A DNA stretch of 28,149 nucleotides from Campylobacterales bacterium (GTDB lineage Bacteria > Campylobacterota > Campylobacteria > Campylobacterales > Sulfurovaceae), in contig JAFGWQ010000178.1 of assembly GCA_016937075.1 (NCBI GenBank), positions 1-28,149 of the forward strand. The letters are read 5' to 3'. The position numbers were made by a program, and so were the translations under genes. The notes beneath the pieces are model-generated. The model was not told where the DNA came from and made no database searches. It worked only from the letters and a program-made list of their open reading frames with translations. Below are positions 9,959 to 28,149 of the stretch, in pieces. The stretch's first letter is position 1. The number at the start of each line of letters is the position of its first letter.

Positions 9959-9999
9959 CTTTGTATATAGAGATAGGTGAGATTATACCAAAAAAGCTA

Positions 10000-10890
10000 T
10001 TATTTGATAATGCGTGAAATTATGCCTTTGTTGTCGTTTATATTCATGATATTATCCGGATTTGTCATTGATGCAAGGATGCTTACATAACGGCTTGCAT
10101 TTGCTTTGTCAGGCACTATCCATGCAAATTTTTTGCCTGAATCTTCGATATCCCGGACAATCTGATTGATCGCATTTTCATCGGGTGAATCTATTTCATT
10201 CGAGCCCAAAGAGACCAATACCAGATCGGGCTTTAATTGATCTATCAAAAATACTAGATTTTGCTCCGCCCAATATTGGGAAATAGAATCATCTTTATAT
10301 TTCGATATAAGATCGACATGGTGCTTTGCAAACAGCTTTTTATATCTCTTATGCGCTTTATTGACTGTATCATCGCCTATAAGAAGCACCTTGTATCGTT
10401 TTTTTGTATTTTTGGCTATTTTTTTTGCGCTGTTTGCCCTAACAGAGGGCTTACTATCCATATGCAGCGCTTGAGCGTAAAAAGAACTGTTTTGATATTT
10501 TTTCAGCACTTTCATAAAATAGTCATTATTGCTTATCCTGCCGTTATAACAATTGATAGCGGCGTAACTGTAGCCGTGCTTGTTGATACATCGCTTTAAT
10601 ATTCTGCTGCCGACATAAATGTTGATCTGGGGGTCAAAGAGATCATCCCTGCTGATATTCTGCCTTCTTAATTCAGGCATATGCACGGTATTTATCTGCA
10701 TGATCCCGATATCTTGGGTACCGTTTTTATTGTTGCCGACAGCCATAGGATTCAACGAAGATTCAGTCTTTGCTATTGCATACAGCAATGCCGGATTGAT
10801 TCCAAATTTGCGTCCCGCATCATCGAACAACCCGTCATAATTTGCCGCCAAAAAAGTAAACGATATCGCCAATACTGCCAAAAACCTCAT
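10000..10890 (-). CDS. Secretion-system-type lytic transglycosylase (SLT domain) fused to a degenerate SGNH/GDSL-fold domain
   Basis: Signal peptide from ATG 10890 (ATGA overlap with pilD stop, GGAG RBS); AIAKTESS catalytic Glu, GIMQIN, AINCYN; C-terminal VLLIGDD and PDLVLVSLGSNE blocks. Confidence 0.85.
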   Translation of the reverse strand: MRFLAVLAISFTFLAANYDGLFDDAGRKFGINPALLYAIAKTESSLNPMAVGNNKNGTQDIGIMQINTVHMPELRRQNISRDDLFDPQINIYVGSRILKRCINKHGYSYAAINCYNGRISNNDYFMKVLKKYQNSSFYAQALHMDSKPSVRANSAKKIAKNTKKRYKVLLIGDDTVNKAHKRYKKLFAKHHVDLISKYKDDSISQYWAEQNLVFLIDQLKPDLVLVSLGSNEIDSPDENAINQIVRDIEDSGKKFAWIVPDKANASRYVSILASMTNPDNIMNINDNKGIISRIIK

Positions 10891-11618
10891 AACAACTCCG
10901 ACATTCTCCAAAACAACCCTGCATATTCATCAGCCATATAGACCGCAAAAACCCCGAGAAACAAAAAAGGCACGAACGGGACCTGCCTGTTTTGGTGGCG
11001 GGTAAAATACACAAAAGGGATAGCTATCAATGCTGCCGCAAAAAGTGCAACGATCGCCGGCTTGATACCCAAAATAGCTGCCATGGCGCCTCCAATGATT
11101 ATATCTCCTTCTCCCATTGCCTCTTTTTTTGTCGCAAAAGAGACATAAAAACGAAGCATTGACATCCCGCCCATGAACAAAAGGGCATTTTGAAAGGTTA
11201 CTAGGGGGCTATCTGCAAAAAAAGAGGCGCTTAGCAGCGTCAAACTGACGCTGTCATGGATCTCATGATGATGATAATCCATTACCGATAATGCCAAAAA
11301 CAGCGAGAAAACAACACCGAGCCACAAAGAGTGCAGGCTATATCCGCTCTTTAAAAATACAGATACAAAAATAACCATAGTTGCCAACTCCACCAAAGGA
11401 TACTGAATGGATACAGGCTCATTGCAGCATGCGCTTTTGCCCCTTAGGAGCAGCCATGAAACTACAGGTATATTATGATACCACGCTATAGGCGTTTTGC
11501 ACGATTGGCATGAAGACCTTGGGCTAATGATAGACAAGCCCAAAGGCACACGATAGATAACAACATTTAAAAATGAACCTACAAACAGGCCAAAAAGCGA
11601 AACTATGATAAATTCCAT
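10887..11618 (-). CDS. pilD: Prepilin peptidase / N-methyltransferase (A24 family)
   Basis: GSFLNVVIYRVP, Cys motifs CQSC and ACC, catalytic Asp in VMDY and MGEGD, VPFVPFL. Confidence 0.93.
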   Translation of the reverse strand: MEFIIVSLFGLFVGSFLNVVIYRVPLGLSIISPRSSCQSCKTPIAWYHNIPVVSWLLLRGKSACCNEPVSIQYPLVELATMVIFVSVFLKSGYSLHSLWLGVVFSLFLALSVMDYHHHEIHDSVSLTLLSASFFADSPLVTFQNALLFMGGMSMLRFYVSFATKKEAMGEGDIIIGGAMAAILGIKPAIVALFAAALIAIPFVYFTRHQNRQVPFVPFLFLGVFAVYMADEYAGLFWRMSELL

Positions 11619-11627
11619 TTTAATCCT

Positions 11628-12695
11628 TCATTGTGATATTTGCTGCATGAACTCGATGGGGTTATTGGAGTGCTTCAAAGCATTTTGCATCGTGATCATC
11701 TTGTTTTGATAATATTTCGCCATCTCTCTTATCTGCGTTTGCATCCCTGTCGTCGCATAATTGAGCTCCATTTGGGAATATATCTGGTGAACCTTGTCAG
11801 TACGGATAAGGTTTGCTATGGCGTTATTATTGATCATTATCTCAGAGATCGCCAAACGGCCTCCGTCTATTTTGGGCACAAGCACCTGAGAAATCACAGC
11901 AACCAGTGAGATCGCAAGCTGCGCTCTTATCTGGTCTTGCTCATCTCCGCTAAAAACATCGATTATACGGTTGATAGTCCCCGGTGCAGAATTGGTATGA
12001 AGCGTCGCGAAGACCATATGCCCGGTTTCAGCAGCCGTCAAGGCAGCCGATATCGTCTCTTTGTCTCTCATCTCTCCAATCAATATCACATCCGGATCTT
12101 GACGCAAAGAGTACTTCAGCGCCGTTGCAAAAGAAACCGTATCGCTGCCGACTTCTCTAAATGTAAAAACTGATTTTTTTCTGCCGTGTACAAACTCTAT
12201 AGGGTCTTCTATGGTGATGATATGCTTGCTTTCTGTTGTGTTGATCTCATTGAGCATGGCAGCAAGCGTGGTCGACTTGCCGCTTCCGGTAGGCCCGGTT
12301 ACGAGTATGAGCCCTTTACCTCTTTTGACCAATTCCTTGTATATTGTCGGGGCGCCCAACTCATCAAGTGACGGAACATATGACGGAACTACCCTGAAGG
12401 CTGCTGCTATATTTCCAAAACTCCTGCAATAATTCACACGAAAACGTCCGACATCTTTGATGTCGATAGCAAAATCGAGCTCACCGCTCTCTTCGAAAAC
12501 CTTTTTCTGTTTACCGGTAATAATGGAATAACAAAGTTTTTGTACCGTATCGGCATCCAATTCCATCACATCTAGAGCTTTAAGCTCGCCGTCTATGCGT
12601 ATGAGAGGTTCATACCCCACTACAAGATGCAGATCCGATGACCCGCAAGCGATCAAAGCCTTCAATAATGTCTTTATATCTATTTCATAATTCAT
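11628..12695 (-). CDS. pilT: Type IV pilus retraction ATPase PilT
   Basis: SDLHL, GPTGSGKSTT, TIEDPIEF, LRQDPDVILIGEMRD, TLHTNSA, AIANLIR (AIRNLIRE motif). Start reassigned to ATG 12695. Confidence 0.92.
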   Translation of the reverse strand: MNYEIDIKTLLKALIACGSSDLHLVVGYEPLIRIDGELKALDVMELDADTVQKLCYSIITGKQKKVFEESGELDFAIDIKDVGRFRVNYCRSFGNIAAAFRVVPSYVPSLDELGAPTIYKELVKRGKGLILVTGPTGSGKSTTLAAMLNEINTTESKHIITIEDPIEFVHGRKKSVFTFREVGSDTVSFATALKYSLRQDPDVILIGEMRDKETISAALTAAETGHMVFATLHTNSAPGTINRIIDVFSGDEQDQIRAQLAISLVAVISQVLVPKIDGGRLAISEIMINNNAIANLIRTDKVHQIYSQMELNYATTGMQTQIREMAKYYQNKMITMQNALKHSNNPIEFMQQISQ

Positions 12696-12718
12696 AATTA
12701 TCCCACCCATATTTATTT

Positions 12719-13804
12719 TTACCCGCCGGTAGCAGACCACAATGAAACCATACCTAGTATCAAACTCGCAGCTACTACTCCCACGACAAGCCCTATCAAC
12801 AAGGTCATGATGGGCGTTATCGCCTGCTCAAGGATAAATATCCTCTGGTTTGTCTCTTCTTCGTAAATATTCATAAGCTGCACGAGAGCATCTTCTAGGT
12901 TTCCGCTCTCCTCGCCTGCTTGGAGGATATCCGCATATATCAACGGTACAAATTTCGCCTCTTGAAACGGCACGGAGAAATTGCCTCCCGAGATGATGAC
13001 CTCCTTGACATTTTCCAGCACTTTTTTAAAGGGCATTAGATTGATACCCTCCATTGAGATCTCCAAGCTCTCCACCAAGCCCACTCCGCTTCCTATGAGC
13101 TTGGACATCGTATTTGAAAAATTTGTCAGAGCGCTATAGAGCATTATCGAGCCGACAAGAGGCGTGTATATCAATACATAATCCAGATAATAACGCACCT
13201 GCTTGGATGCTTTGTATATCACTATCAAACTGACAAATACAGCGGCACTGTACGTTGCTATATTTTTCCAATTATCCAAGAGGTATGTGGATATATCCAG
13301 CACCATTTGTGTCAATGCCGGCAGCTCGGCTCCCATCGAGGACAAAAATCCTGAAAATGCAGGAATAACCTTGATAGCCATAAAAAAGACAACCCCCACA
13401 GCAAACAGCAATGTCACTATCGGCATCGTCATGGCTCCCCTGATCTTGCGTTTGAACTTGGCTTTTTTTTCAAGGTTATGATGGACTTCTTTGAAAATTT
13501 CAGGCAAATTACCGCTTTTTTCTCCTGCGCCTATCATGGAAAGTGTCATTTTGTCGAAAAACACCGGATAATAACGCCCGATCTTTGAAAAATCGTTACC
13601 CTGCTCTATGAGCGCAACCGCATCTTTGAGCAATAGCTTGATATTGCCCCGCGATGAGCGCTGGATCATCTTGACCGCTTTGAGTACCGGGACACCCGCC
13701 CCCATCAATATCCCCATGAGCCTAAAAAAATTATTTTTTTGTTTTTGCGGGACTTTGCGGATATGGTTCCTATAAAAATGTTCTGCGCCTTTTGCTTTCA
13801 TCAC
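12719..13804 (-). CDS. pilC: Type IV pilus / T2SS inner-membrane platform protein (PilC/GspF)
   Basis: Two T2SSF repeats (GAGEKSGNL, AGEESGNL) and three TMs. Start GTG 13804 or ATG 13801 behind a GAGG RBS, just after the pilB stop. Confidence 0.9.
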   Translation of the reverse strand: MMKAKGAEHFYRNHIRKVPQKQKNNFFRLMGILMGAGVPVLKAVKMIQRSSRGNIKLLLKDAVALIEQGNDFSKIGRYYPVFFDKMTLSMIGAGEKSGNLPEIFKEVHHNLEKKAKFKRKIRGAMTMPIVTLLFAVGVVFFMAIKVIPAFSGFLSSMGAELPALTQMVLDISTYLLDNWKNIATYSAAVFVSLIVIYKASKQVRYYLDYVLIYTPLVGSIMLYSALTNFSNTMSKLIGSGVGLVESLEISMEGINLMPFKKVLENVKEVIISGGNFSVPFQEAKFVPLIYADILQAGEESGNLEDALVQLMNIYEEETNQRIFILEQAITPIMTLLIGLVVGVVAASLILGMVSLWSATGG

Positions 13805-13811
13805 TGCCTCT

Positions 13812-15611
13812 CTAATCAGCCACAACTTTTCTGAGTTCATCGACAGATGTGATGCCCTCGAGGACTTTTGCCCTGGTTTCCATATAAATGGTTGACATCC
13901 CCAGCTCGGAAACTGCATAGGATTTGATCTCTATGTCGCTCCTGCGTTCATTGATCATTCTTTGTATATGCGCATCGATTATCAAGAGTTCATATACGCC
14001 GATCCGCGAGGCGTATCCGGTGTTGTTGCACTTAAAACACCCTTTGTGGCGGTATATCGTTTGAGGCTCATCCAATTTGAGCAGCGACATATCAGCCTGT
14101 GAAGTTTCATACGCCTCTTTGCAGTGCGGGCACAAAACACGCACCAGCCTTTGAGCCAAAACAGCAGCGACTGAAGAAGAGACCAAAAACGGCTCTATCC
14201 CCATATCTACAAGCCTCGTCACAGAACTTGGGGCGTCATTAGTATGGATGGTAGAATAGACCAAATGCCCCGTCAATGAAGCTCTGAGCGCGATCTCTGC
14301 CGTCTCTTTGTCGCGGATCTCGCCTATCATGATCACATCAGGGTCTTGGCGCAATATAGTCCTGAGCGCATCCGCAAATGAGACCTTGTATGGGTCTATT
14401 TGGACTTGATTGACCCCGGATATTTTCGCCTCTACCGGGTCTTCTACGGTCGTGATGTTGATCTCGTCGGATTTGATCTCTTCTATGGCCGCTTGCAAAG
14501 TGGTCGATTTACCGCTCCCGGTAGGCCCAGAGACCAAGATTATCCCGTGCGGTTTTTTGATGACTTTCCTCCATTTTTCCAGCAGCTCTCCGCTCATGCC
14601 TAAACTGCTGAGCTTTATCGTCACATCCTGTCCGCCAAGACGTCTTAATACGATCTTTTCTCCGTAAATGACAGGCATGACCGAGACGCGAAACGGTACA
14701 TCTTTTCTCTCTTGCGCTTCATCTAAGTATGTGTACACCATTTCGCTGCTGTGCGTATCTGATTTTTCTTCTGCATCATTGCTTGCTGATTGTTTATTTT
14801 GAGAATTAAAAGAGGAAAAAAAATTTGCTGCTTTCAGGGATGTGTTCGTGTCTTCCTCGGCTTTTTCATTGTACGAATAGACCAAAGCGCCGTCTTGCGT
14901 ATCTCTTTTTTCGGCGATATTAAGGTTGGAGATCAGCTTGATGCGAGAACTGAAAGAAGGAAAAAAATTCTTGCCATATTCACCGAAAACCTGTAAAACC
15001 CCGTTAAACCTCATCCGTATCCTGAAATTGTGTTTTTGCGGTTCTATATGGATATCTGATGCTCCTATAGAAATGCATTTCCTTATCACTTCTTCGGCGA
15101 ACTTGATTGCCCTAATATTCTCAGGGATCTTTGCTAAGTCCTTATCGCTGCTTAGGGAAAAGTTTCTTCTCATCTCCATGCCGTTTTGCAGCACATCCGA
15201 CATCCGGGCAAACGCTTCGCGATCAACCGCTATCTTCTCTATCTCTCGTCCTAACTCGCTTGAAAGCTCTTCCCATGTCGCTGCAAATACCGGCGAATCG
15301 AAATATATTCTGGCATTTGCCTCATCGACGATATCTGCGATCACACGGTATTTCTCAAACAACTCATCTGTTATTACCGTATATTCGGAAACAAAAACCG
15401 CTTCATTGGCTTCTTTGGCTTCAAACTTTTGAGCCAAAAAAGCTGCCATGAACTCTTTGGATGCGATACCGTTTTTGTAGATGATATCCCACATGGGAAT
15501 TTTGCTTGATGTCTGTTCTTTGATGATGGAGGCACGGCCTTTGTTGTTGATGACGCCTGATTGCTCCAATTCTCTTAGGAGTGTCGCTTCAAAGTCTCTT
15601 ATATTTCTCAT
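13812..15611 (-). CDS. pilB: Type IV pilus extension ATPase (PilB/GspE family)
   Basis: ASDIHIEP, GPTGSGKSTT, TVEDPVE, LRQDPDVIMIGEIRD, STIHTND, Zn tetracysteine CPHC...CFKC. Confidence 0.93.
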   Translation of the reverse strand: MRNIRDFEATLLRELEQSGVINNKGRASIIKEQTSSKIPMWDIIYKNGIASKEFMAAFLAQKFEAKEANEAVFVSEYTVITDELFEKYRVIADIVDEANARIYFDSPVFAATWEELSSELGREIEKIAVDREAFARMSDVLQNGMEMRRNFSLSSDKDLAKIPENIRAIKFAEEVIRKCISIGASDIHIEPQKHNFRIRMRFNGVLQVFGEYGKNFFPSFSSRIKLISNLNIAEKRDTQDGALVYSYNEKAEEDTNTSLKAANFFSSFNSQNKQSASNDAEEKSDTHSSEMVYTYLDEAQERKDVPFRVSVMPVIYGEKIVLRRLGGQDVTIKLSSLGMSGELLEKWRKVIKKPHGIILVSGPTGSGKSTTLQAAIEEIKSDEINITTVEDPVEAKISGVNQVQIDPYKVSFADALRTILRQDPDVIMIGEIRDKETAEIALRASLTGHLVYSTIHTNDAPSSVTRLVDMGIEPFLVSSSVAAVLAQRLVRVLCPHCKEAYETSQADMSLLKLDEPQTIYRHKGCFKCNNTGYASRIGVYELLIIDAHIQRMINERRSDIEIKSYAVSELGMSTIYMETRAKVLEGITSVDELRKVVAD

Positions 15612-15626
15612 TTTTCTTCTTTTTGA

Positions 15627-16928
15627 TTATTGTATGATCACATTCTGGTTTGGCAAGAACATCATCGAGCGGCTGTCCAACAACTCCCATGCGCCTGCTT
15701 TTTTCTGCATGATAACCACCTGCTTTTCTCCCGCAGTAATATAAAAAGGGTTTGCGGCATCATCTGTATTTCTATCATGCGTAACGACTGTCTGTGTATT
15801 TGTGCTTATGCGTATATCTTTTATAAAAGTCGTTATGCCAAGCTGAGTGCCTTCGGCGCTATCGTGAAAATCATACGCGGTGTTATTGATAGTAAGCGTA
15901 TCATTCGCAGCTGTTGCCAGGTCTATATCAAATGCATATTTGACCGCCCCCGCATGCCACCCTGTCGTGCTTTGCATGGCATCTGACAAACTAAATCCGC
16001 TTGCATATGTCAAAAACGGTTTATACGCTATATCAGTCCCGCCGCAATCTGCATTAATAGTATTTTTTTCTATGCAATTTGACGTAGTATTTGGTACATA
16101 ATAAAGCATCGGAGAGTAGATGATGACCCTCACAGCAGTGATATCGGCACTGTTTTCAAGCACGAGATCTATAGATAGCGATCTTGGCATAAAATTATTT
16201 TTCGCATACTCCACGCCGATATCATCCGCATATAGCGCTTTGACGGATTTTGTATCGGTTGCAAATTCATTAAATTCAGGTTTGAGATGCGGTATCGCCG
16301 CGCTTGTTTGCTTATCGCTTCCGTACGATATCAGTTTCACATACGGTGTCGGCGGAGTAGTATCCGCGATATTGAGTTCGTAAACTGCCTCGATGGGCGT
16401 ATTCCACCCGTCTTTGAGTGTTTTATTTAAATTGCTGCTTGCGGCGAGATAGGAGTCATGGAATCCTACATACAAAGCGCCGTGTTTGCCGTCAATTACA
16501 CTCATGCCCTCTGCGGGGTCGATATACTTGCCTGACACCGTTGTGTTGTCCGTCAGAAACGGCATCGGCACTTTGAATGTATTTGCAACACTATAGAGAT
16601 CTGCTATACGGTATTTGCCGAGTGTCTTTGCTTCTCCTGACGCGCCGGTATTAATAAAATAGTTTGCATTTTCACGATCAAGCATAAAATGCAGGTTCGG
16701 CGGCAGCGTTCCGAAATCATTCAAAAAGCCGCTCAAGTCTCCGCTGCTCTCTTGTGCTATAATCCCGTCTTTGATATTTTGCATTGTTTTTACCGTTAGC
16801 TGTTTGGCCTGTATGTTTCCTGCATCCTTAAGCCCGCTGAGCACCAATGTCGAAAGCATCCCTATGATCGCAATGACTATCAATAACTCTATGAGTGTAA
16901 ACGCCTTTCTTGCTGCTGTAAACATCAT
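15627..16928 (-). CDS. Large type IV pilin-like protein (GspG-like core plus ~200-aa C-terminal domain)
   Basis: Class III signal RKA|FTLIELLIVIAIIG; NDFGTLP, DGWNTPI, LISYGSDK motifs; one Cys pair. Confidence 0.85.
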   Translation of the reverse strand: MMFTAARKAFTLIELLIVIAIIGMLSTLVLSGLKDAGNIQAKQLTVKTMQNIKDGIIAQESSGDLSGFLNDFGTLPPNLHFMLDRENANYFINTGASGEAKTLGKYRIADLYSVANTFKVPMPFLTDNTTVSGKYIDPAEGMSVIDGKHGALYVGFHDSYLAASSNLNKTLKDGWNTPIEAVYELNIADTTPPTPYVKLISYGSDKQTSAAIPHLKPEFNEFATDTKSVKALYADDIGVEYAKNNFMPRSLSIDLVLENSADITAVRVIIYSPMLYYVPNTTSNCIEKNTINADCGGTDIAYKPFLTYASGFSLSDAMQSTTGWHAGAVKYAFDIDLATAANDTLTINNTAYDFHDSAEGTQLGITTFIKDIRISTNTQTVVTHDRNTDDAANPFYITAGEKQVVIMQKKAGAWELLDSRSMMFLPNQNVIIQ

Positions 16929-17944
16929 CTATCCTCATTGTAAAAAAAACTACTCAACCCATTATCAAAAAGGTACAAAACCGAATCATCGTAGCCTTGC
17001 GCAGTATAATCTATATCGAGCGTAGCGACACTCGTATCTCTCCTTCTATCAGGCCCGAACGATACTATGCGCGCGTATTTGGCCCTGAGAGTTCCTGCGC
17101 CGGATACTCCTGCGAGTGCGTCCGATGTAGGTATCTGTATCTCATACGGGGTACCATACGGGTCGAGTACCGTCGGGGCATTGAGCATGGTTGAGCTTTT
17201 TACGCCGTAGATTTCTTTGCGGTTTCTTGCATTTTCGTACAAACTGTTCATAGTGCCGTCGAATACGGGGGTATATACCGGGTAAAGTTCGGCATTTGCT
17301 TTGGCTGCGTCCCATGCGGTATCGATATCCCAAAGCGTAGATGCACCGTCAAACTTATACAGCTCGATATCCTGCTGCGCTACAAAATAGAGATTGCCCG
17401 TTTCGGCTTCGCCGCCACCCAAAGCTTTGAGGCTTGAAGGCTTGAGATAGCCGTTGCCTGCTATATATCCACCCTTCCATCCGCCCTTATCGGGATTAAG
17501 CTTTTCTTTGATGATGTCTATGAGCACCTGCTTGCGCTGCGTTCCTGTGCCGTTATCCCCCTCGCTTGTGGCATCCACTCTCAAATCTGCGGCATTGGTA
17601 TAATGGCGGTCTATGAATGAGATCATATTTCTGCATACATCGCTTGTGGCTGCATTGTTATAATTCACCGCGCCGATACCGCCTGTAACGTCAAAGCATT
17701 TCTCGAAACCGTATGTCAGCAATGACACATTATCAGGCGCAAATCCCACATCCCCGTAAAACTCCAAAGCGCCTTTTTTGATCATCTTCATTTGAGATTC
17801 ATTGAACTGTTCTTGTGCTGCCTCTTTGGTGTTGCTCAATCTCGGGGCAACTATAGCAACCAAAAAACCCATGATAACTATGACGATCAACACCTCGATT
17901 AGCGTAAACGCGCTGCGGTTTTTTGTCACTCTGCAAGTTTTCAT
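16925..17944 (-). CDS. Large type IV pilin-like protein, GspG-like
   Basis: RSA|FTLIEVLIVIVIMGFLVAIVAPRL; FYGDVG, GWKGGYI, DPYGTPY, IVSFGPDR...DD motifs. Confidence 0.87.
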   Translation of the reverse strand: MKTCRVTKNRSAFTLIEVLIVIVIMGFLVAIVAPRLSNTKEAAQEQFNESQMKMIKKGALEFYGDVGFAPDNVSLLTYGFEKCFDVTGGIGAVNYNNAATSDVCRNMISFIDRHYTNAADLRVDATSEGDNGTGTQRKQVLIDIIKEKLNPDKGGWKGGYIAGNGYLKPSSLKALGGGEAETGNLYFVAQQDIELYKFDGASTLWDIDTAWDAAKANAELYPVYTPVFDGTMNSLYENARNRKEIYGVKSSTMLNAPTVLDPYGTPYEIQIPTSDALAGVSGAGTLRAKYARIVSFGPDRRRDTSVATLDIDYTAQGYDDSVLYLFDNGLSSFFYNEDR

Positions 17945-18285
17945 ATTAGTTTCTTGACAAGTTGAATATATTTTGGGTCTATTTTGATCTTGTTGCCGGC
18001 GCCAAAATCCATCTTGATATCTTTGAGATAACCTGTCTTTTTGATAGCATCAAACACTAAAAACGCTTGCGTAGCAGTATAGCTCAATCTATATCCGGCT
18101 ATTTTCACAGTCGCTTTCTCATCCCCTCTTGCCAATGACAGAAATATACTCTTCGCATCCCTGTCAAACTCCATATCCTCTATCTTGCCCATCTCGGCGG
18201 GGATCTGCATATTTACCAAAGGCAAAATGTATGTCTGGCTGCTAAACACCTTTTGTGTCAATTTTTTTAGTTTTGTGTATATCAT
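17941..18285 (-). CDS. Hypothetical basic protein within the pilus operon
   Basis: AAGGA RBS and ATGA overlap with the downstream pilin; no family recognised. Confidence 0.75.
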   Translation of the reverse strand: MIYTKLKKLTQKVFSSQTYILPLVNMQIPAEMGKIEDMEFDRDAKSIFLSLARGDEKATVKIAGYRLSYTATQAFLVFDAIKKTGYLKDIKMDFGAGNKIKIDPKYIQLVKKLI

Positions 18286-18294
18286 CTGTATTCC

Positions 18295-19485: not shown

Positions 19486-19491
19486 CAGGCC

Positions 19492-21162
19492 TCACTTCCC
19501 GATATACGGCTTTTGGCCGTTATGCCTGGATGATTCCGCGCTCTCAGGGTCATAGCAAAAAGTATCCTTGTATGTGAGGTTATCTTGCAGTTCATTGCGG
19601 ATATCCTGGCGCACTTTATTTTCTTTTGGATTATTCGGATCTATGATAGTAGGCGTCAAGACCATGATTAGCTCCCTTCTTGATTTGTCATTTGCTGTTT
19701 TTTTGAATATCGTGCCAAACACAGGGATATCGCCCAAAACAGGCACCTTGCTCTCATTAATTGAATTTTGCTCCCTGATCATCCCGCCCAAGACTATGCC
19801 CTTTTTATCGGTAGTGCTCAAAAGCGATTTGATGGTATATTTGGATATGCCGTCTATTGTATAAGATTGCGTACCCCCCGTGGCGATCGGTATGACTATG
19901 GTTTGCGTTTTGCCGCTGAGAGATGATATCTCGGCATCTATCTTGAGCAGTATCTCGTTATTTTCATTAATAAACGGGGTTATGCCAAACTGTGTACCGA
20001 GTTGTTTCTTTTCATATATCGGCGTAGGCGGGATAACCACGCTTCCCCCCTCATTTGTCGTAACCGAACCTTTCTCTATGCCTGTGACCACATATCTCTC
20101 TTCTGTCAGGTCCAGCTTGGAAGATATCCTGTTTAATGTCAGCAATACAGGCGAAGATATGGAAGTCGCCTTGCCGTTGTGTTTGGCTATATCTATATTT
20201 GCCTGTATATTAGAACTGAGAAACATATAGCTTATATTGCCTATGCTTCCCGTACTGCTAAGCACCTTGCCCAAAGCAGACGATTTGGAATCTTTGATGA
20301 TAAAATCAAAGAACGAATGGTAATTATCCCCCAATGTCATCTCTATGATCTCCGCTTGGATCAATACTTGTTTCATAGGCCGGTCTATCTTCTTGAGCAG
20401 TTTTTTCGCCTCTGCTATCAGCTCAGGTTTGGACGAAGAGAGAAAAACCATATTTTCATTGAAATAAGGCACGATATAGAGTACATCACGCGGTATATTG
20501 CTGTTTTGCAGCGCCGTATCAGAGCTTGCAGCAGGTGTATTTGCGCTGCTTGTAGCTGCAGTGCTTGTGCTTGCCGTACTCGCAGAACTGCCGCTGTTGT
20601 TTGCACCCTCGATACCCGGAGCCACGCTCGCACCTTCAGTGGAGGTAGCAGCTTTCATTGGCTGTATGGAGAGATCTGGTGTCATATTCACCAGGTTGCT
20701 GTATGCGAGATTTTTGCTGCTCGAATTGATCACTGCGCGCCCGGGCATCATATCCACCAAAAAATTGATAGCATCACTCAAAGCCGTATATTTGACCGTC
20801 ACTTGCGCCGTATTGAGCGTACCGCCATAATAATTGCTTTCCAAAAACTCCTGCTTGGAAGTGAATGTGACAATGTTATTGTTTTGAACATATGTAAGGC
20901 CGGATTGTTCTGCGACCATATCGAGCAAACCCTTCATGTTTCCATTTTGCATATGCACAGATAACGGTATCTCTTGGTATTTTGGGTGCACATTAAAATT
21001 GAGCCTATACTCATTGCCGAGATAGCCGAGCAGGTTTTGGACGGATATCTTGTCGAAATTGACATACTCTATCTCTATTTTGCTCAGCTCTTTTGCATTG
21101 ATACTGCTTGTTGCCAGAGCTATTGCCAGCCATATCCCGATTGCGATCTTTTTAAATATCAT
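19492..21162 (-). CDS. pilQ: Secretin (PilQ/GspD family)
   Basis: QVLIQAEIIE, SSPVLLTLN, GITPFIN, VLGGMI, KVPVLGDIPVFGTIF, ELIMVLTPTII. Start reassigned to ATG 21162 behind a GGAGGAG RBS. Confidence 0.88.
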   Translation of the reverse strand: MIFKKIAIGIWLAIALATSSINAKELSKIEIEYVNFDKISVQNLLGYLGNEYRLNFNVHPKYQEIPLSVHMQNGNMKGLLDMVAEQSGLTYVQNNNIVTFTSKQEFLESNYYGGTLNTAQVTVKYTALSDAINFLVDMMPGRAVINSSSKNLAYSNLVNMTPDLSIQPMKAATSTEGASVAPGIEGANNSGSSASTASTSTAATSSANTPAASSDTALQNSNIPRDVLYIVPYFNENMVFLSSSKPELIAEAKKLLKKIDRPMKQVLIQAEIIEMTLGDNYHSFFDFIIKDSKSSALGKVLSSTGSIGNISYMFLSSNIQANIDIAKHNGKATSISSPVLLTLNRISSKLDLTEERYVVTGIEKGSVTTNEGGSVVIPPTPIYEKKQLGTQFGITPFINENNEILLKIDAEISSLSGKTQTIVIPIATGGTQSYTIDGISKYTIKSLLSTTDKKGIVLGGMIREQNSINESKVPVLGDIPVFGTIFKKTANDKSRRELIMVLTPTIIDPNNPKENKVRQDIRNELQDNLTYKDTFCYDPESAESSRHNGQKPYIGK

Positions 21163-21514
21163 AGCGAACAGCTCCTCCGTTGTTGATTGATAATAATACA
21201 TAGCCGTGTTCTATTTTGATGACCTTTATGGAGGTCTTGATATCCGATGTATCTACATACACACTCTCTCCTTCACAGACATACAAAAGCCCCTTTTCCT
21301 GAATATCGAGCAGCGCTTTGTGTATCCCGTCTTTATACATGATACCCTTGACCTTGATATCGGCCTGCCTGTTCGTGCTTGTCGGCGTCAAGTAATACTT
21401 GCCTGTTTTTTGGATATACCTGTCGCTTACCGCGAACGGGTCTCTTTGGACATTCCATTTCGCCGCTTCTATCAGCGTCGATAAAGCGGCCAATACTATC
21501 ATCGCTTTTTTCAT
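21152..21514 (-). CDS. PilP/GspC-HR-like alignment subunit (no lipobox Cys)
   Basis: Signal peptide, RDPF motif, VKGIMY..ALL..V.EGE..VIKIEHGYVLL beta pattern; lies between pilO-like and the secretin. Confidence 0.65.
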   Translation of the reverse strand: MKKAMIVLAALSTLIEAAKWNVQRDPFAVSDRYIQKTGKYYLTPTSTNRQADIKVKGIMYKDGIHKALLDIQEKGLLYVCEGESVYVDTSDIKTSIKVIKIEHGYVLLSINNGGAVRYDI

Positions 21515-22053
21515 AGGGTCAGCACCCCTATTTGGATCTTTGTTTTGACCAGCATTTTGTTGTTTTCGATAAAGATCTTATACTCCACGATCTTGACATC
21601 CGCATACATAGAATACACATGGTCATAAAAATTCATCAAGCCCGCATAAGAACCGTTCACGGTCAATTCCATAATGTTTTGCTTTGTATCCATTTTGTAC
21701 TCATATATATCAAATTTGTACAAATTCAATTTCCCTATCACGGCTATGGCGATATCATCACTGTTTTTATAGATGACTTCGCCGAACTTATCGACTTTTT
21801 CTTTGAGTTTGCTCTCTTCATGAACCAGCGATATCTTTTCTTGTTTGAGCTTTCTGATATCCTTTGCCAATCTATCCTCTTTGAGCATGGTTATATTCTG
21901 TTCCACATCCGATATCTTTTTGATGGCCGGCGCCATGTTTTTGTTGTAGAGATAATAGATAAACACTGCACCGATTATTACCTGTACGCCTATAATGAGA
22001 TATTGATTTTGCAATAGTGCCAGCGCACGGCGTTTTAACTCATCACTGTTCAT
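21511..22053 (-). CDS. PilO/GspM-like alignment subunit
   Basis: Single TM, coiled coil, ferredoxin-like C-terminus (LTVNGSYAGLMNFYDHV); synteny. Confidence 0.7.
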   Translation of the reverse strand: MNSDELKRRALALLQNQYLIIGVQVIIGAVFIYYLYNKNMAPAIKKISDVEQNITMLKEDRLAKDIRKLKQEKISLVHEESKLKEKVDKFGEVIYKNSDDIAIAVIGKLNLYKFDIYEYKMDTKQNIMELTVNGSYAGLMNFYDHVYSMYADVKIVEYKIFIENNKMLVKTKIQIGVLTL

Positions 22054-24053
22054 AATATCTCCAAAACAAACTCATTATTAAAATTGCTCTCCAATAGTTT
22101 TTGCCGGTCATTTGTATCGGCCCTATTGGACTCTTCGAGCCTTGAGGGCTCATCCTTGGCAGAGTCTCTGTCATTCAAAGGAAGCGTGCGGGTTTTGTTT
22201 TGCGGGTACTCGAACAATTCCCTCATTGACCCTTGCGCATTAGGCGCGCCGTTTGATGCCGCGAGTTGATAGGTGGTCCTCTGGCTTTTATCCGCTGCTG
22301 GCATCTTGTTTTTCCCTTTGTTGTCCGTCAGGCTCTTTAAAAATACTTTTTTGCCCTGCAATGAAAGCGCACGTATATACTTTAGCAGCGAAGATTCGTA
22401 TATACATCGTCCAGATACGGTGATAACGGTATTTGTATCCGTATTTGCTACCGGCGCTTTTTTTTCTATATTGGTCAAAACCATATCGTCAGGCAACCCG
22501 TTGGCTATCATATGCAGTGACTTCGCCTCTTGGGATACCTTTTTTGCATCTATGAGGTTTTGCATATTTGCTACCTTACTATTAAGTGCCGCTATGTTTG
22601 ATTTGATCCTTTTATTGGCTGCTTCCAGTCTCTTTTTTTGCTCATTTTTCTCCGTCACGTGCTGATGCTCTTTGATGATGTTATCCAGCTTGTATTCCAG
22701 ATACCACTGCCCCGCATAAGTCAGCCCGGCTATCGCTGCGATCACAAAAAACGGCAGTACAGAAGTGTTCTTGTGAAGCTGCTCATATGAACTCAGATGT
22801 TTGCTGACTCCCAAGCGAATCGCTTTGAAGTTGATCTTGAACAGCTCGTGGTACGCTATGCTTACGACCGTTACGTAGCTATTATCCAGGCTGATATCCC
22901 TCTCTAAACGGCTGATACAGTTAGGCAGGTCTTTGTTGTAGTTGTATGTCCTTATATGCACCCCGCCTGCCAAAAACTCTATTTTCATCTTTTTATAAAA
23001 ATCACCGCCGCCGCTCAGGACTGTTTCGGGCGCATTTGCAGCCAGTGCCATGAGCGCTTCATAGTCATAATGCAGGTTAAACTGCTGATAATCAAAGCTT
23101 CCATCTTCGTTTTGATACATCGTATAAGCATTTGCCCCTATAACATGTATGCGAAAATGCGACGCGTTATCATCAGTGTACGACGACGAAAACAGTGATG
23201 ACTTCACAGAGTGGAACTTCTTGATGGAGATATCCGACGCATCCATATAACTCTCTATGCGGTCATACGCCTCTTTTTCGCAGATAGAGACAAGCTTATG
23301 CATCCTATCCTTCTCTCCTGTCCTAAACGGAGATATGGTCGCATACACATCGCTCATGCCGTATCCGGAGATAGCTTCTATCTCTTTGTTGATAGCGCTG
23401 TTTAACATGGTTTCATCTTTGAAACGGCTGCTTTGTATGCTCACTTTATAAAAATCACAGTAAGCATCTTGGATGATAACTATCTGGCTCGGAAGCGCAT
23501 ATATAGTCTCATATGATACTATGGTGATGACGTTTTCTGGCGATTCATACCACGTATGGTCCATTTCCGCCTCTACGCCGGTGATCCGTTTGTGTACTAT
23601 GTGCAGCTCATCATACGTGTAGCTTTTGAGATATTTGATATCCAAAAACACCCCCTGCTTGGAGACTATTGACACCGTGACCACGTCACTGAGCATTTCG
23701 ATCACGAAAATCGATCTGGGAAACAGCGATGTGATGACATTATCCACCGCTTCGAGGAAGCTTAGCCTCATCTTTTTGACCTGGCTTATGACGGTGGCGG
23801 ATTGCTCTACGAAAATATCGTTGACATCAAGGGTGTATTTCGCCGCAGCAGGCTCTTTGACGCTCAGAAGCTCTATGATCTTCTCTTTACGCTTATTGCT
23901 CCTGCTAAATAGGCTGCCGAAACTCCATTGCAGTTTATCGCCGACTGTATTTTTGCCGGGTTCTTTGGTATTGAAAAATTTGACCATGTTCACAGCATCT
24001 TTTTTATCTTTGCCAAAGAGCCGGACAAGCTTCTGTTTGATCCGTTTCATCAT
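22050..24053 (-). CDS. Fused PilM-PilN (GspL-like architecture) protein
   Basis: Actin-like cytoplasmic part with VLSGGG motif, one TM (VLPFFVIAAIAGLTYAGQWYL), coiled coil, PilN-like IANGLPDDMVLTNI...ITVSGR. Confidence 0.7.
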   Translation of the reverse strand: MMKRIKQKLVRLFGKDKKDAVNMVKFFNTKEPGKNTVGDKLQWSFGSLFSRSNKRKEKIIELLSVKEPAAAKYTLDVNDIFVEQSATVISQVKKMRLSFLEAVDNVITSLFPRSIFVIEMLSDVVTVSIVSKQGVFLDIKYLKSYTYDELHIVHKRITGVEAEMDHTWYESPENVITIVSYETIYALPSQIVIIQDAYCDFYKVSIQSSRFKDETMLNSAINKEIEAISGYGMSDVYATISPFRTGEKDRMHKLVSICEKEAYDRIESYMDASDISIKKFHSVKSSLFSSSYTDDNASHFRIHVIGANAYTMYQNEDGSFDYQQFNLHYDYEALMALAANAPETVLSGGGDFYKKMKIEFLAGGVHIRTYNYNKDLPNCISRLERDISLDNSYVTVVSIAYHELFKINFKAIRLGVSKHLSSYEQLHKNTSVLPFFVIAAIAGLTYAGQWYLEYKLDNIIKEHQHVTEKNEQKKRLEAANKRIKSNIAALNSKVANMQNLIDAKKVSQEAKSLHMIANGLPDDMVLTNIEKKAPVANTDTNTVITVSGRCIYESSLLKYIRALSLQGKKVFLKSLTDNKGKNKMPAADKSQRTTYQLAASNGAPNAQGSMRELFEYPQNKTRTLPLNDRDSAKDEPSRLEESNRADTNDRQKLLESNFNNEFVLEIL

Positions 24054-24595
24054 AAATGCGACAACACCTCATCTTCGCTGACTTCGCCTACGAACCTGGC
24101 TTTGATCTCCATTGTCTTGGTATCCACCAGATAGCTTACCGGAAATGCGGTCGGCTCAAAGATATCATAATACCCTTCAGGGATCCTCGATACGGCATAC
24201 TCTATGCCGTGAAGGCTCGCAAAATCCCTTACCTTCGACGGATCTGCGGCTATATACCCGATGACGCTCAGCTTGTCGTTTTTATCGAGTTTATTGAGAG
24301 TATCTATGCTCTTTATGCAATGGCTGCACCGCAAGGCAAAAAACTCGAACAATACATACGGCTTGGCATCAACCTGCTTTTTTATCTCTTTCGAATCGCC
24401 AATGTAAGCCGATATATCTATGGAATTCAATGCATTGCCGCTATTTTGCGATGCATTCTCATCATGCCCGCAATGCACGCAAGGCTGCTGTGCCGGGATC
24501 GCTGCCCATACGGCTATCACGACTCCGAGCATGCTGAGCAGCAGTACCATTCTTTTAGTTTTATCCTGCATTGCCTCTTTGATCTTTTGTACCAT
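24050..24595 (-). CDS. Membrane-anchored thioredoxin-fold protein (TlpA/ResA-like)
   Basis: FFALRCSHC active-site motif, cis-Pro loop FPVSYLVD, N-terminal TM; additional CVHC motif near the N-terminus. Confidence 0.8.
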   Translation of the reverse strand: MVQKIKEAMQDKTKRMVLLLSMLGVVIAVWAAIPAQQPCVHCGHDENASQNSGNALNSIDISAYIGDSKEIKKQVDAKPYVLFEFFALRCSHCIKSIDTLNKLDKNDKLSVIGYIAADPSKVRDFASLHGIEYAVSRIPEGYYDIFEPTAFPVSYLVDTKTMEIKARFVGEVSEDEVLSHL

Positions 24596-25768
24596 TTATG
24601 CTCCTTTAGCTTCTTGGGCGGTATCTTCGCACCCTTTTAGCTTGCATACCAAAGCGTACCAATCCTCAAGCGCAAGATAGATGAGCTTATCGGCCTTCGT
24701 ATGCTCTATGCCTGCTTTGGTCTCCAAGGCATATGCAAGCTGATGCGCCATATACGGGTTTTTTTGCTCCAGTATCGCCATATATTTTGCAGATTTTTGT
24801 ATATCGCCGGATAGTGCGGCGCATATACTCATAGCTCTTAGAAGGTCATCGCTTGGCTTTAGCGCATAAGAGCGCTCATATGCTTCCAATGCAGGCGCAA
24901 ATGCCCCTATCCGCTGCAAACCTGCCCCTTTGATCTCCAATGTACGCCCGTCATGCTTGGCGATATTTTCTATATGCTTCATAGCTTCGAGCAAAGCGTT
25001 GTGTTTGACATACAATTCTGCCGCTGTTCTGTTTGCCCCGTCATGATTTGACCGGATGCTTACTATTTTTTGGGCTGTGCGCAAGGCTTTCATATCATAG
25101 CCCTCTTTTTGGTAGCGTGCCATGAGCTTTTCGAGCTGCGCTATATCGTTCGTTACCTTATACTCATTTGCTATCTCTTTGGCTGCGGGCTTTTTGGCCA
25201 ATTTTTCATATGCCTGCGCCAATGGTGCTAGGAGTTCATCGCCTTCATACTGCCCGCTTGCTTTGATATGCGCATAGTAGCCGTACGCGTCGTCATATTT
25301 GCCTGTTTTATACATATTAACGGCCAAAAGCCTGTAATATTTGATCTGCGGCCCGTCATGATGAATGAGCGAAAGAGCCTCGCCGGCGCTTTTGGTATAA
25401 TCTTTGAGCATATGGTCCACAAGCGCCACGGCATATCCCGCTTCAAAATCATCGGGGTTGAGCTCATAAGCCCTGGCATAGTACTTTCTCGCATTTGCCA
25501 TATCCCCTTTGTGGCGATACAAAGCTGCTATGCTGTGCAGGCTTCGATCATCCTTGTCATAGAGCGCTACGGCTTCTTGGTACAATTTCAGCGCTTCGTC
25601 ATTTTTGCCTCCCGCGTATGCATTGTATGCATTGAGGGCAGTTTCTTGAAATACCCTTACTTTGTTCTGTTCGGTCTCGTAGGCATAATATCTGTATCCT
25701 ATCCATGCGGCAATTCCCGCCATGACGATAGGAATCAAAGCAATAATTATTTTGGTCTGTATAGTCAT
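24596..25768 (-). CDS. Membrane-anchored tetratricopeptide repeat protein
   Basis: N-terminal TM followed by repeated TPR-like units (ALKLYQEAVAL, ARKYYARAYELNP, ALEAYERSYALKP). Confidence 0.82.
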   Translation of the reverse strand: MTIQTKIIIALIPIVMAGIAAWIGYRYYAYETEQNKVRVFQETALNAYNAYAGGKNDEALKLYQEAVALYDKDDRSLHSIAALYRHKGDMANARKYYARAYELNPDDFEAGYAVALVDHMLKDYTKSAGEALSLIHHDGPQIKYYRLLAVNMYKTGKYDDAYGYYAHIKASGQYEGDELLAPLAQAYEKLAKKPAAKEIANEYKVTNDIAQLEKLMARYQKEGYDMKALRTAQKIVSIRSNHDGANRTAAELYVKHNALLEAMKHIENIAKHDGRTLEIKGAGLQRIGAFAPALEAYERSYALKPSDDLLRAMSICAALSGDIQKSAKYMAILEQKNPYMAHQLAYALETKAGIEHTKADKLIYLALEDWYALVCKLKGCEDTAQEAKGA

Positions 25769-25810
25769 CTCTTTTTATCCGTTTTTGTTATTTTCGTGAT
25801 CCACAAACAC

Positions 25811-25835
25811 CGTCATTCTCACGAAGACTGAAATC
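25811..25835 (+). repeat. Degenerate CGTC-type REP / dRS3-like palindrome
   Basis: CGTCATTCTCACGAAGACTGAAATC aligns colinearly with the copy at 27513-27539. Confidence 0.55.
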
Positions 25836-25871
25836 GGCTTGTGTGTTATCCATGATCTCATCGGTTCTCAC

Positions 25872-25907
25872 CGCTCAATACCCGCAAAGGGGAAAGGGTA
25901 TTGAACG
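25872..25907 (-). other. 12-bp stem-loop in the pilin-TPR intergenic region
   Basis: Minus strand CGTTCAATACCC-12 nt-GGGTATTGAGCG (one G-U pair). Confidence 0.7.
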
Positions 25908-25948
25908 CTGTTAACCTTTGTTTATCTATTTTGTTATATAATTAAATC

Positions 25949-25974
25949 GTCGCCGGGGATCGCTCCCCGGCGGC
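25949..25974 (-). other. GC-rich stem-loop with a GNRA tetraloop
   Basis: Minus strand CGCCGGGGA-GCGA-TCCCCGGCG, perfect 9-bp stem followed by only a weak U tract. Confidence 0.75.
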
Positions 25975-25981
25975 TATGCGT

Positions 25982-26015
25982 AAAAGGGAGGAGGCAAACC
26001 GCTTTGCCGAATCCC
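25982..26015 (-). terminator. Rho-independent terminator directly after the pilin stop codon
   Basis: Minus strand GGGA-TTC-GGCAAA-GCGG-TTTGCC-TCC-TCCC-TTTT. Confidence 0.7.
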
Positions 26016-26017
26016 AA

Positions 26018-27070
26018 TTATTTAAGAGAGATACCTACAGCATCAGAGCTTGCTCCCCAAGTATGTCCTTCAGGGCAAGATGTCGTAAAGTCAGTAACTT
26101 TTTGCGCACCGAAATACTCATAACCGCTCGCAGGAGTACGTCCGACTATCTCTAATGTGCCGTCATCTTTTTCATTTAGCGCAACAGCATGCAATGTATC
26201 TTCACCCATTCTGTCCATTGTAGCTGCAAGTCTCGGCACGACTATTACGTAGTTGCCCCAACTGAAATTGTCAGCATTTTGAAGTTGTCCAGGGCAAGTA
26301 CCTGCTTCATCCAATATACCGCTTTGTACCATTTCTCCGTCTTTACCTACACCGAGCAAGATACGGCCGATATTTTTACCTTCGTGCATAAATGCAAATG
26401 TACCGCCAACTTGTGCATTTTCAGAAGTAGCATCTTTTGGATCAACCGGAGTAGCACTTCTTGTAGCAACATTGCCGGCTACGGTAACAGTATCGCCTTT
26501 GGCATATGCCGGAACAGCAGCATTAGTAGCAGCACCCATACCTGCCATCAATACTTTAAGGTCAACAGCTACAGGCTGTCTTGTACCTCTTTCTTTAATG
26601 TTTGTACTGCCGCCTGCTTGTTGTTCGCCAAGAAGAACATTATTAACTTGTGCGAGCATTTTAACTGCGCCCATACCCATACCTCTAAGCTCTTTTGCTT
26701 CATCAGCGTTTAGTGTATAAACTTGCGGTTTGAATCTCTCTGCAAACTCGGCAGACAAGAACTCAGGCCCGTTCGTTTTATCTTCATCTGACGCAGCAGG
26801 GACAGCAGCAGTGGTACCGTTAGCATCAGTTGCAACGACCATGTTGGTCAATCCGGCAGGAAGTTTACTGTCAAGCGCATAAGCTGAATTTATAATCTTT
26901 CTTAGTCTCTCTTGGTTGGTATCGCACGCAGTATCTACGCCTTTATCCACTATACCTGCCAATTTCGGCGCTACCATAGCTACCAAAAAGCCCATGATCA
27001 CTAATACAACCAAGATTTCGATGAGCGTGAACGCACCTCTAGCCCCTGTTTTCTTTTGGTTTTTCACCAT
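26018..27070 (-). CDS. Candidate major type IV pilin, 350 aa (337 aa mature)
   Basis: Strong RBS AAGGAG before ATG 27070; RGA|FTLIEILVVLVIMGFLVAMVAPKL class III signal; first gene of the cluster with its own terminator; A/T-ending Ala/Thr/Val codons unlike the neighbouring genes. Confidence 0.85.
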   Translation of the reverse strand: MVKNQKKTGARGAFTLIEILVVLVIMGFLVAMVAPKLAGIVDKGVDTACDTNQERLRKIINSAYALDSKLPAGLTNMVVATDANGTTAAVPAASDEDKTNGPEFLSAEFAERFKPQVYTLNADEAKELRGMGMGAVKMLAQVNNVLLGEQQAGGSTNIKERGTRQPVAVDLKVLMAGMGAATNAAVPAYAKGDTVTVAGNVATRSATPVDPKDATSENAQVGGTFAFMHEGKNIGRILLGVGKDGEMVQSGILDEAGTCPGQLQNADNFSWGNYVIVVPRLAATMDRMGEDTLHAVALNEKDDGTLEIVGRTPASGYEYFGAQKVTDFTTSCPEGHTWGASSDAVGISLK

Positions 27071-27481: not shown

Positions 27482-27512
27482 TGAAGTAAAAACAAAGTTT
27501 AACTATATGATG

Positions 27513-27539
27513 TGGATCCCCGCCTTCGCGGGAATGACA
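27513..27539 (-). repeat. CGTC-type REP / dRS3-like palindrome (best-conserved copy)
   Basis: Minus strand TGTCATTCCCGCGAAGGCGGGGATCCA = ATTCCC-N8-GGGGAT, one mismatch from the dRS3 core ATTCCC-N8-GGGAAT. Confidence 0.8.
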
Positions 27540-27558
27540 AAATTATTTTAAATCCTGC

Positions 27559-27573
27559 CATAATCGCATCATT
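27559..27573 (+). repeat. 15-nt direct repeat, copy 2
   Basis: CATAATCGCATCATT, identical to 27326-27340. Confidence 0.85.
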
Positions 27574-27586
27574 TTAATAATGAGGT

Positions 27587-27647: not shown

Positions 27648-27663
27648 GGATATTTTTACAACT

Positions 27664-28056: not shown

Positions 28057-28149
28057 GCTTACTCCTTCGTATAATAAATTACCAACCAAAATACTAAAAT
28101 ATGGTTGGGTTCATTAAAGACTCATAGTTTTCACAAAAGCTAACAGCAA

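Follow-up and report, generated by a model that had tools for sequence, protein, structure and literature searches.

The pili closest in gene order to the system described here are the Pih pili, named in 2012 from Pelobacter (Syntrophotalea) carbinolicus, where the genes Pcar_0863-0877 lie in the order pihD-O-P-Q-I-J-K-L-M-E-G-F-B-A-H (PMC3543383, Aklujkar et al.). That study flagged the unusually large pilins, the fused PihI, the retraction ATPase PihM and the Msh-like gene order; in its gene table, PihI is entered as an 'ATPase and membrane protein' and PihM as a retraction ATPase. The Pih pilus is known there from genome annotation, with no experiment reported. In the literature searched, the term Pih occurred in no other paper, and the customary vocabulary of filament classification does not include it. 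Here we analyse a 28,149-nucleotide contig, JAFGWQ010000178.1 (hereafter the window, at its full length), of a freshwater Campylobacterales bacterium. All long open reading frames (ORFs) of the window are on the minus strand, and the pilus genes among them constitute one tightly packed operon of ~17 kb running from 27070 to 10000. This operon probably encodes a retractile type IV pilus that is self-contained, belongs to the Pih class and was acquired horizontally. This reading is preferred because all core parts are found in one operon, the gene order is shared with related loci, three marker genes fall in a common clade with Pih-like loci, the first pilin matches PihD and the PilT-family ATPases exceed their curated cut-off.

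Identification of the window genes by Pfam and NCBIfam profile searches confirmed what an initial annotation, made from the sequence alone, had seen as one cluster with PilB, PilT, a thioredoxin, a tetratricopeptide repeat (TPR) protein, a transglycosylase and a peptidase. The curated models of the described filament classes do not accommodate its core components. The PilB-type ATPase scores 459 bits against a GspE cut-off of 630 and 430 bits against a PilB cut-off of 676, while the platform protein reaches 190 bits of the 424 required for GspF. The secretin obtains 123 bits for GspD (cut-off 351), 104 for MshL (250) and 98 for PilQ (284). Both small ATPases, on the other hand, exceed the curated PilT-family cut-off (TIGR01420, 432 and 447 bits versus 319).

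Operon synteny is conserved in six related Campylobacterota loci, and the full gene order recurs in Campylobacterota metagenome-assembled genomes (MAGs), including a Sulfurovum MAG (L012), and on a 2.65-Mb contig, ctg9557c (L009/L114). For every operon gene, the nearest relatives belong to Campylobacterota MAGs that share this gene order. The first pilin has relatives in Desulfonatronum (SMP76760.1) and on several metagenome contigs, in loci that run from the large pilin(s) through a PilM-PilN fusion (or PilM and PilN), PilO, a small protein, the secretin and PilT to PilB and PilC. Two of these Pih-like loci continue with a PpiC-type isomerase, followed in L112 by a small GspG-like protein that has no PilD motif.

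Phylogenies of PilB, PilC and the secretin were computed by quick search, with support expressed as the Shimodaira-Hasegawa-like approximate likelihood ratio test (SH-aLRT) only. The references, taken from a Colwellia MAG and other genomes, were identified by curated models together with synteny. Those for the type II secretion system (T2SS) comprised three GspE, two GspF and one GspD sequences, the GspE being over the cut-off in three genomes. The PilB of type IVa pili (T4aP) was likewise over its cut-off. The MshE reference of the mannose-sensitive haemagglutinin (MSH) pilus was identified by its E-G-F-pilins-MshQ context, and MshL was over its cut-off in an I-J-K-L-M-N context. The Pih-like references were recognised by gene order and by homology to the PihD-type first pilin, and L112 additionally by the PpiC isomerase and the small GspG-like protein downstream. 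The window's family is monophyletic in all three trees (SH-aLRT 100 each) and joins the Pih-like loci with support of 100 (PilB), 99 (PilC) and 98 (secretin). The resulting clade excludes the T2SS, MSH and T4aP references in every tree, as well as the other ATPases and platforms from the systems of 60 Campylobacterales genomes; in the PilB tree it groups weakly (82) with T4aP and Firmicute PilBs. Identity to the Pih-like loci amounts to 23-29% for PilC and the secretin and 40-44% for PilB. The system therefore appears, from its sequences, to be a divergent Campylobacterota variant of the named but experimentally uncharacterised Pih class.

These results bear on the initial annotation in two ways. 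Its view that the cluster fits neither a canonical T2SS nor a canonical T4aP is borne out both by the curated cut-offs and by the position of PilB, PilC and the secretin outside the references. Its description of an undescribed subtype is right only in part, since the Pih pilus had been named in 2012, though never characterised, and the three trees group the window with Pih-like loci. Among the phylogenies that it had proposed, those of PilB, PilC and the secretin place the system outside the T2SS, MSH and T4aP references as anticipated, yet within a clade of Pih-like loci. It had also asked whether the core proteins nest in a described family of equal gene content and pilin size: such a family is described and its large pilins are known, but the gene content is the same in part only.

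The three prepilins of the operon share the cleavage site A/FTLIE (cleavage at the slash), preceded by leaders of 13, 12 and 9 residues, and their mature sizes of 337, 327 and 424 residues agree exactly with the range of 327-424 residues given initially. They are two to three times as large as is normal for such subunits. The pilin encoded first is the most widely conserved of the three: the full-length relatives returned by an exhaustive search measure 300-410 residues and fall into ~100 clusters at 50% identity. Its AlphaFold2 model (pLDDT 91, pTM 0.87) shows an extended helix at the N-terminus followed by a large body dominated by beta structure, and its top match in the AlphaFold database is PihD itself (Q3A689; E 2.5e-21, 314 residues aligned, 32% identity). 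Foldseek matched the model to no solved structure in the Protein Data Bank (PDB), and exhaustive structural alignment with VIA-align returned only the pilins PilJ, EpsG and PulG, at Z scores of at most 4 over ~80-100 residues. We read this model as a pilin core carrying a beta-rich insert of ~250 residues that would have no solved counterpart. The gene possesses its own AGGAG ribosome-binding site and is followed, after the stop codon, by a hairpin that was found by eye and with a repeat finder, and which a consensus terminator scan missed. Helix alpha-1 of the product contains Gly14 and Pro22 and is near-identical to that of the 339-residue pilin.

The 339-residue pilin (327 mature) belongs to a small family, with 36 clusters among 5.8 billion, and is characterised by an invariant Cys83/Cys104 pair and a DDSV motif. 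Its AlphaFold2 model (pLDDT 81) has EpsG (Z 5.8) and PulG (Z 5.4) as best PDB folds. Fold comparison of this pilin gives modest backing to the GspG motifs that had been noted in two of the prepilins, and the 'T2SS-like' character ascribed to the subunits holds only as a weak GspG-like core in this one pilin. Orthologues of the 433-residue pilin, of 421-426 residues, adjoin the 339-residue pilin in every related locus. We considered the 339-residue pilin as a homologue of PihA-like or PihB-like proteins, and rejected this when hhalign comparison of the families matched the N-terminal helix only; for that reason the 339- and 433-residue pilins are kept as family-specific. One higher-depth Logan contig of sequencing run X1 lacks two bases at window position 16942, six codons before the stop codon of the 339-residue pilin, and this deletion probably represents a related strain with another C-terminus. 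The statement that there are only three prepilins is correct for the cluster but not for the genome, where a fourth, lone gene of 216 codons' product length is found on contig C82 (7789-8439). This prepilin (MSKQNKA/FTLLE...) is located at the contig end, behind metabolic genes, and could serve the Pih-like machine or another, unassembled one.

The inner-membrane base could be traced to its Pih-like counterparts by profile comparison. The 667-residue protein has no Pfam match of its own, its family profile matched none of the PDB sequences, and a word-indexed search yielded only three relatives; BLAST of this and of the 180-residue protein against the Pih-like and MSH counterparts gave nothing usable. 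Nevertheless, the family profile, built from eight orthologues, aligns to the counterparts in the related loci over ~390 columns (hhalign 97.7%, E 2e-12). These counterparts in turn match Thermus PilM (2YCH, E 2e-6) and carry Pfam PilN at the C-terminus, and a language-model search with the 667-residue protein led to PilM/PilN clusters. The fusion of PilM and PilN proposed initially is therefore supported transitively, and we designate the protein a predicted PilM-PilN fusion. The 180-residue protein gave a weak hhalign match to the Pih-like PilO proteins (31%, E 5e-4) and a weak BLAST match to Colwellia MshJ (E 0.006); position, size and topology weakly suggest that it is PilO/PihJ-like. For the 120-residue protein, hhalign recovered the small protein at the same position in the Pih-like loci (95.8%, E 8e-9). 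A signal peptide is present in the 120-residue protein but a lipobox cysteine is lacking, so that the non-lipoprotein character claimed for a PilP stands, while the homology reaches the protein in the PihK position and not PilP itself.

Among the motor proteins, the PilB-type ATPase has a family-specific N-terminal half and ~38 full-length relatives, after which scores drop sharply. The two PilT-family ATPases have separate affiliations in the PilT tree. The 396-residue protein, whose gene follows that of the secretin, makes up a separate clade together with the family orthologues and an unlinked Sulfurovum copy (support 100). The 370-residue protein, encoded after PilC, joins the genome's third PilT and a Sulfurovum copy (support 100) and is, on this placement, a paralogue of the host-type PilT. 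That third PilT-family gene, its closest paralogue, is located on contig C136 (11760-12833) and is unlinked to pilus genes. The 370-residue PilT is present in L009 and absent from the L010, L012 and L013 clusters; the L012 and L013 clusters have no PilT, but in the Sulfurovum MAG (L012) a PilT of the corresponding type is encoded outside the cluster. A published study of pilT in Geobacter does not bear on this system. The label PilU, which the initial annotation had given to one of the ATPases, had to be withdrawn: the second ATPase is of the PilT family, neither paralogue groups with the PilU reference, and the AIRNLIRE motif is absent from both.

The accessory proteins recur in the related loci. 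The thioredoxin-like protein has a membrane anchor and cysteine pairs at positions 39/42 and 90/93, shows weak matches to TrbB (an F-pilin assembly thiol-disulfide isomerase; E 5e-7) and DsbE, and is conserved in L009, L010, L012 and L013. Orthologues of the TPR protein occupy the same position in L012, L013 and L114. The 114-residue protein has no hydrophobic segment and no Pfam or NCBIfam match, and an atlas search with it was uninformative; its orthologues occur in all six related loci, always directly upstream of the two giant pilins. The transglycosylase gene overlaps the peptidase gene by 25 bases. The SLT match of its product is confined to residues 28-124, and the C-terminal 170 residues show no confident family, with a weak WecG-like match in Pfam (E 0.005). 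All sixteen genes are presented in Table 1.

Table 1. Genes of the Pih-like pilus operon, in order of transcription, with the evidence for each assignment
Feature	Position	Strand	Evidence
PihD-like giant prepilin, 350 aa (337 mature)	26018..27070	-	N_methyl motif
Inner-membrane-anchored TPR protein, 390 aa	24596..25768	-	TPR Pfam matches; N-terminal hydrophobic helix
Membrane-anchored thioredoxin-like protein, 181 aa, two CxxC	24050..24595	-	weak TrbB, DsbE matches
Predicted PilM-PilN fusion (PihI-like), 667 aa	22050..24053	-	hhalign to Pih-like counterparts
Putative PilO/PihJ-like bitopic protein, 180 aa	21511..22053	-	position, size, N-terminal membrane helix
PihK-like small periplasmic protein, non-lipoprotein, 120 aa	21152..21514	-	hhalign; signal peptide
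Secretin, 569 aa	19492..21201	-	Pfam Secretin E 2e-32
PilT-family ATPase, PihM position, 396 aa	18295..19485	-	TIGR01420 432 bits
Conserved 114-aa protein, predicted ORF product	17941..18285	-	orthologues in six related loci
Giant prepilin with GspG-like core, 339 aa (327 mature)	16925..17944	-	N_methyl motif
Giant prepilin, 433 aa (424 mature)	15627..16928	-	N_methyl motif
Extension ATPase, PilB/PihE-type, 599 aa	13812..15611	-	T2SSE E 3e-115
Platform protein, PilC/PihG-type, 399 aa	12719..13918	-	T2SSF E 3e-47
Second PilT-family ATPase, 370 aa	11628..12740	-	TIGR01420 447 bits
PilD-type prepilin peptidase, 243 aa	10887..11618	-	PF06750 (A24_N) E 7e-34; PF01478 E 2e-11
Lytic transglycosylase, 303 aa, encoded at the operon end	10000..10911	-	SLT E 2e-22; IagB-like E 1e-30

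The operon is a compositional island, probably acquired horizontally. Its GC content is 44.3% versus 37.4% for the genome, and the GC content at third codon positions (GC3) of its genes is 0.43-0.56, compared to 0.31-0.38 in the flanking phosphotransferase system (PTS) and Lol-like genes, with the transglycosylase being intermediate (0.43). The first pilin gene, at 0.33, is host-like, unlike all other island genes; this may reflect either host-preferred codons due to high expression or a separate history of the gene, such as its replacement after arrival of the island. No tRNA gene or direct repeats were found at the island ends, and no integrase family matched among the window genes scanned. 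The first pilin gene is flanked by palindromes resembling repetitive extragenic palindromic elements and by a 35-nt direct repeat (25490-26154 and 27485-28149). Logan contigs at these repeats have a word depth of >1000, versus ~5 elsewhere, and the repeats are highly repeated in the sample, perhaps across organisms.

The distribution of the locus is sparse. Full-length matches to the 339-residue pilin were obtained in two of 401 sampled genomes of the phylum, the window's own included, and none was found in the three genomes of the same genus (3/3 negative); a full-length PilB orthologue was found in none of 60 sampled Campylobacterales genomes. The PihD-like pilin is present in five of 301 sampled genomes from the phylum of a Desulfobacterales MAG. 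Within Campylobacterota, the cluster of L010 (MAG SpSt-1228) is a GC outlier (50% versus 39% in the flank), while those of L009/L114 and L013 match their surroundings, a pattern that fits repeated transfer among Campylobacterota. L114 has extra genes at 10658-13249 and 17726-18286, both inside the operon and encoding an 863-residue protein with no Pfam match before the PilM-PilN fusion and, behind the secretin, an SH3_3 protein. In run X2, from a hot-spring metagenome, there are near-identical pieces of window positions 8200-14200 (the end with PTS, SLT, peptidase, PilT, PilC and PilB) and almost nothing of 14850-24800 (the half with pilin, secretin and PilM-PilN); as contigs attest presence and not absence, this may reflect coverage only. 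Most sampled Campylobacterales encode two to four PilB/GspE-type ATPases, and the platforms beside ATPases of ~550-615 residues (loci L062-L088) cluster with MshG of Colwellia (91), a hint at MSH-like pili being widespread within this order.

By analogy with T4aP, we propose that the PilD-type peptidase cleaves the three prepilins at Ala/Phe and presumably methylates them, and that the membrane-anchored, double-CxxC thioredoxin-like protein would set their disulfides. The PilB-type ATPase, acting on the PilC platform, would polymerise the pilins, the PilM-PilN fusion and the PilO-like and PihK-like proteins would join this motor to the secretin, and the transglycosylase would make room in the cell wall for the machine. 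Depolymerisation of the fibre would fall to the PilT paralogues. Gene identities, family placement and the island character are observed; filament composition, retraction and function are deduced from them. Surface attachment combined with pulling is the function that we infer to be most likely.

As for composition, the PihD-like 337-residue pilin is most likely the major, or bulk, subunit of the fibre. It is favoured in this role because it is first in the operon, has its own ribosome-binding site and hairpin, displays a host-like GC3, is the most widely conserved of the three and possesses Gly14 and Pro22. The 327- and 424-residue pilins, together with the 114-residue protein, would more likely represent a priming or tip module. 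We put forward only tentatively, as possible but short of probable, that the bulk of a retractile fibre consists of the PihD-like protein and that the Pih class is a distinct, widely scattered branch of type IV filaments with giant subunits. Several observations weigh against the overall reading of the operon as a retractile pilus of the Pih class. The PihD-type proteins of Pelobacter were annotated as minor pilins and the small PihA as the major pilin (PMC3543383), although the 'minor' label is given by size alone. Searches by tblastn with the L112 counterparts of PihF, PihB, PihA and PihH found nothing, either in the window or in the genome, which is 74% complete. Prepilin cleavage behind an alanine (position -1) is uncommon, the set of four core minor pilins normally expected is absent, and the PilO homology is weak. 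In the trees, the Pih-like references are Desulfonatronum, L111 and L112, with Pelobacter's own sequences not among them, and the family is set off by long stem branches (1.5-1.9 substitutions per site). Finally, the locus was not found in RNA runs from the study that yielded the genome.

Other readings of the locus must also be weighed. It might encode a secretion machine of the T2SS kind, in which a short pseudopilus of the giant GspG-like proteins would drive substrates from the periplasm through the secretin. In its favour, the GspE, GspF and GspD models give the ATPase, platform and secretin slightly better scores than the PilB, PilQ and MshL models do, the best solved folds for the 339-residue pilin are EpsG and PulG, and the pilins are few, with no PilY1. 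However, all of these scores are far under the curated cut-offs, and the trees separate the family from the GspE, GspF and GspD references. Furthermore, the operon has no GspC/L/M and no GspH-I-J-K, its base is a PilM-PilN fusion, and it includes one or two PilT retraction ATPases, which makes a secretion machine quite unlikely. A DNA-uptake (competence) pilus, functionally equivalent to the Campylobacter Cts system or to T4aP-driven transformation, is also unlikely. The phylum includes naturally transformable members, retractile machines of this type with few pilins often serve DNA uptake, and PilT is present; yet the window has no ComEA, ComEC or DprA gene, and the locus is a rare accessory island and not a conserved trait. 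The giant decorated pilins suggest adhesion over DNA binding, and in the PilB tree, whose sequences do not include bona fide Cts, the other Campylobacterales ATPases occupy other clades.

The sharp composition jump at both ends of the island, in a fragmented assembly, could be taken to mean that assembly or binning joined foreign DNA to a Campylobacterales contig. Host-like sequence is nonetheless found on both sides, the word depth is even (~5-7) over flank and operon, and in an independent assembly (Logan) of run X1, which is probably the source sample, a 3.7-kb contig bridges 8200-11382, including the SLT/PTS junction, with two differences. An artefact is rejected as very improbable on account of this bridging contig and the even depth; the shared gene order of the closest Campylobacterota relatives likewise speaks against it. 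A horizontally acquired, retractile pilus of the Pih class remains the preferred explanation.

The classes of type IV filaments have been defined almost wholly from Proteobacteria and Firmicutes, and about a tenth of the detected systems remain 'generic' (PMC6668835). The present locus and its relatives provide a concrete, self-contained case, in at least two phyla, in which giant pilins are combined with a fused PilM-PilN base and built-in retraction. Solved T4aP pilins measure 111-161 residues, and the PilA of Myxococcus 208 (PMC11046646). If the PihD-like pilin is indeed the bulk subunit, it would exceed every known major type IV pilin by far, having ~1.6 times the size of Myxococcus PilA and more than twice that of the other solved T4aP pilins. 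The locus raises the questions of how subunits of 35-45 kDa can be accommodated by a PilB/PilC/PilT motor and a secretin, and what role a thick, decorated fibre plays for sulfur-cycling bacteria at mineral or host surfaces. As carriers that are expected to be culturable exist (Desulfonatronum, Syntrophotalea carbinolica and possibly a Sulfurimonas sp.), these questions are testable.

Comparison with the known systems places the operon closest to Pih. A PihD-type large pilin comes first, several oversized pilins carry the PilD-type motif, and the order of the fused PilM-PilN, PihJ, PihK, the secretin PihL, PihM, PihE and PihG is kept. The differences concern the three extra genes between PilT and PilB and the end of the operon: Pih includes PihF, a PpiC isomerase, PihB, PihA, a small 'major pilin' that has no PilD motif, and PihH, a putative peptidase, all of them missing from the window, which has a standard PilD-type A24 peptidase. 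The window further possesses the TPR, thioredoxin-like and 114-residue proteins, two family-specific giant pilins, a second PilT and the SLT protein. The Pih genes are lettered after Msh, and the window shares with MSH loci the I(M-N)-J-K-L run followed by the extension ATPase and platform, as well as a dedicated TPR protein. The Colwellia MshE, MshG and MshL references nevertheless fall outside the window's clade, and the secretin is well under the MshL cut-off. Moreover, PilT stands in place of the ExeA-like MshM, with no ExeA-like gene in the window, and small MshA-D pilins and MshQ are absent from it.

With canonical T4aP, the system has in common PilT-family ATPases over the cut-off, a PilD-type peptidase, and pilins with short leaders and Glu5. 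It differs in that PilB and PilQ score below their cut-offs, PilM and PilN are fused, the pilins are of 327-424 residues and all genes are in one locus; none of the minor-pilin set FimU-PilVWX-PilY1 is found in the window cluster. The resemblance to T2SS consists of the GspG-like core in one pilin and a compact locus with a secretin, from which it departs by failing the GspE, GspF and GspD cut-offs and by carrying PilT; GspC, GspL, GspM and GspH-I-J-K gave no Pfam or NCBIfam match in the window. In type IVb pili of the CofB/TcpB type, a single large minor pilin serves as initiator. A priming or tip module made of a small number of very large pilins, next to a major pilin, would be comparable to this by analogy only: fold comparison gave a weak match (9IUF, Z 5.3), the window's leaders are short, its peptidase is of the PilD type, and its PilT/PilB-type motors are unrelated to Bfp/Tcp.

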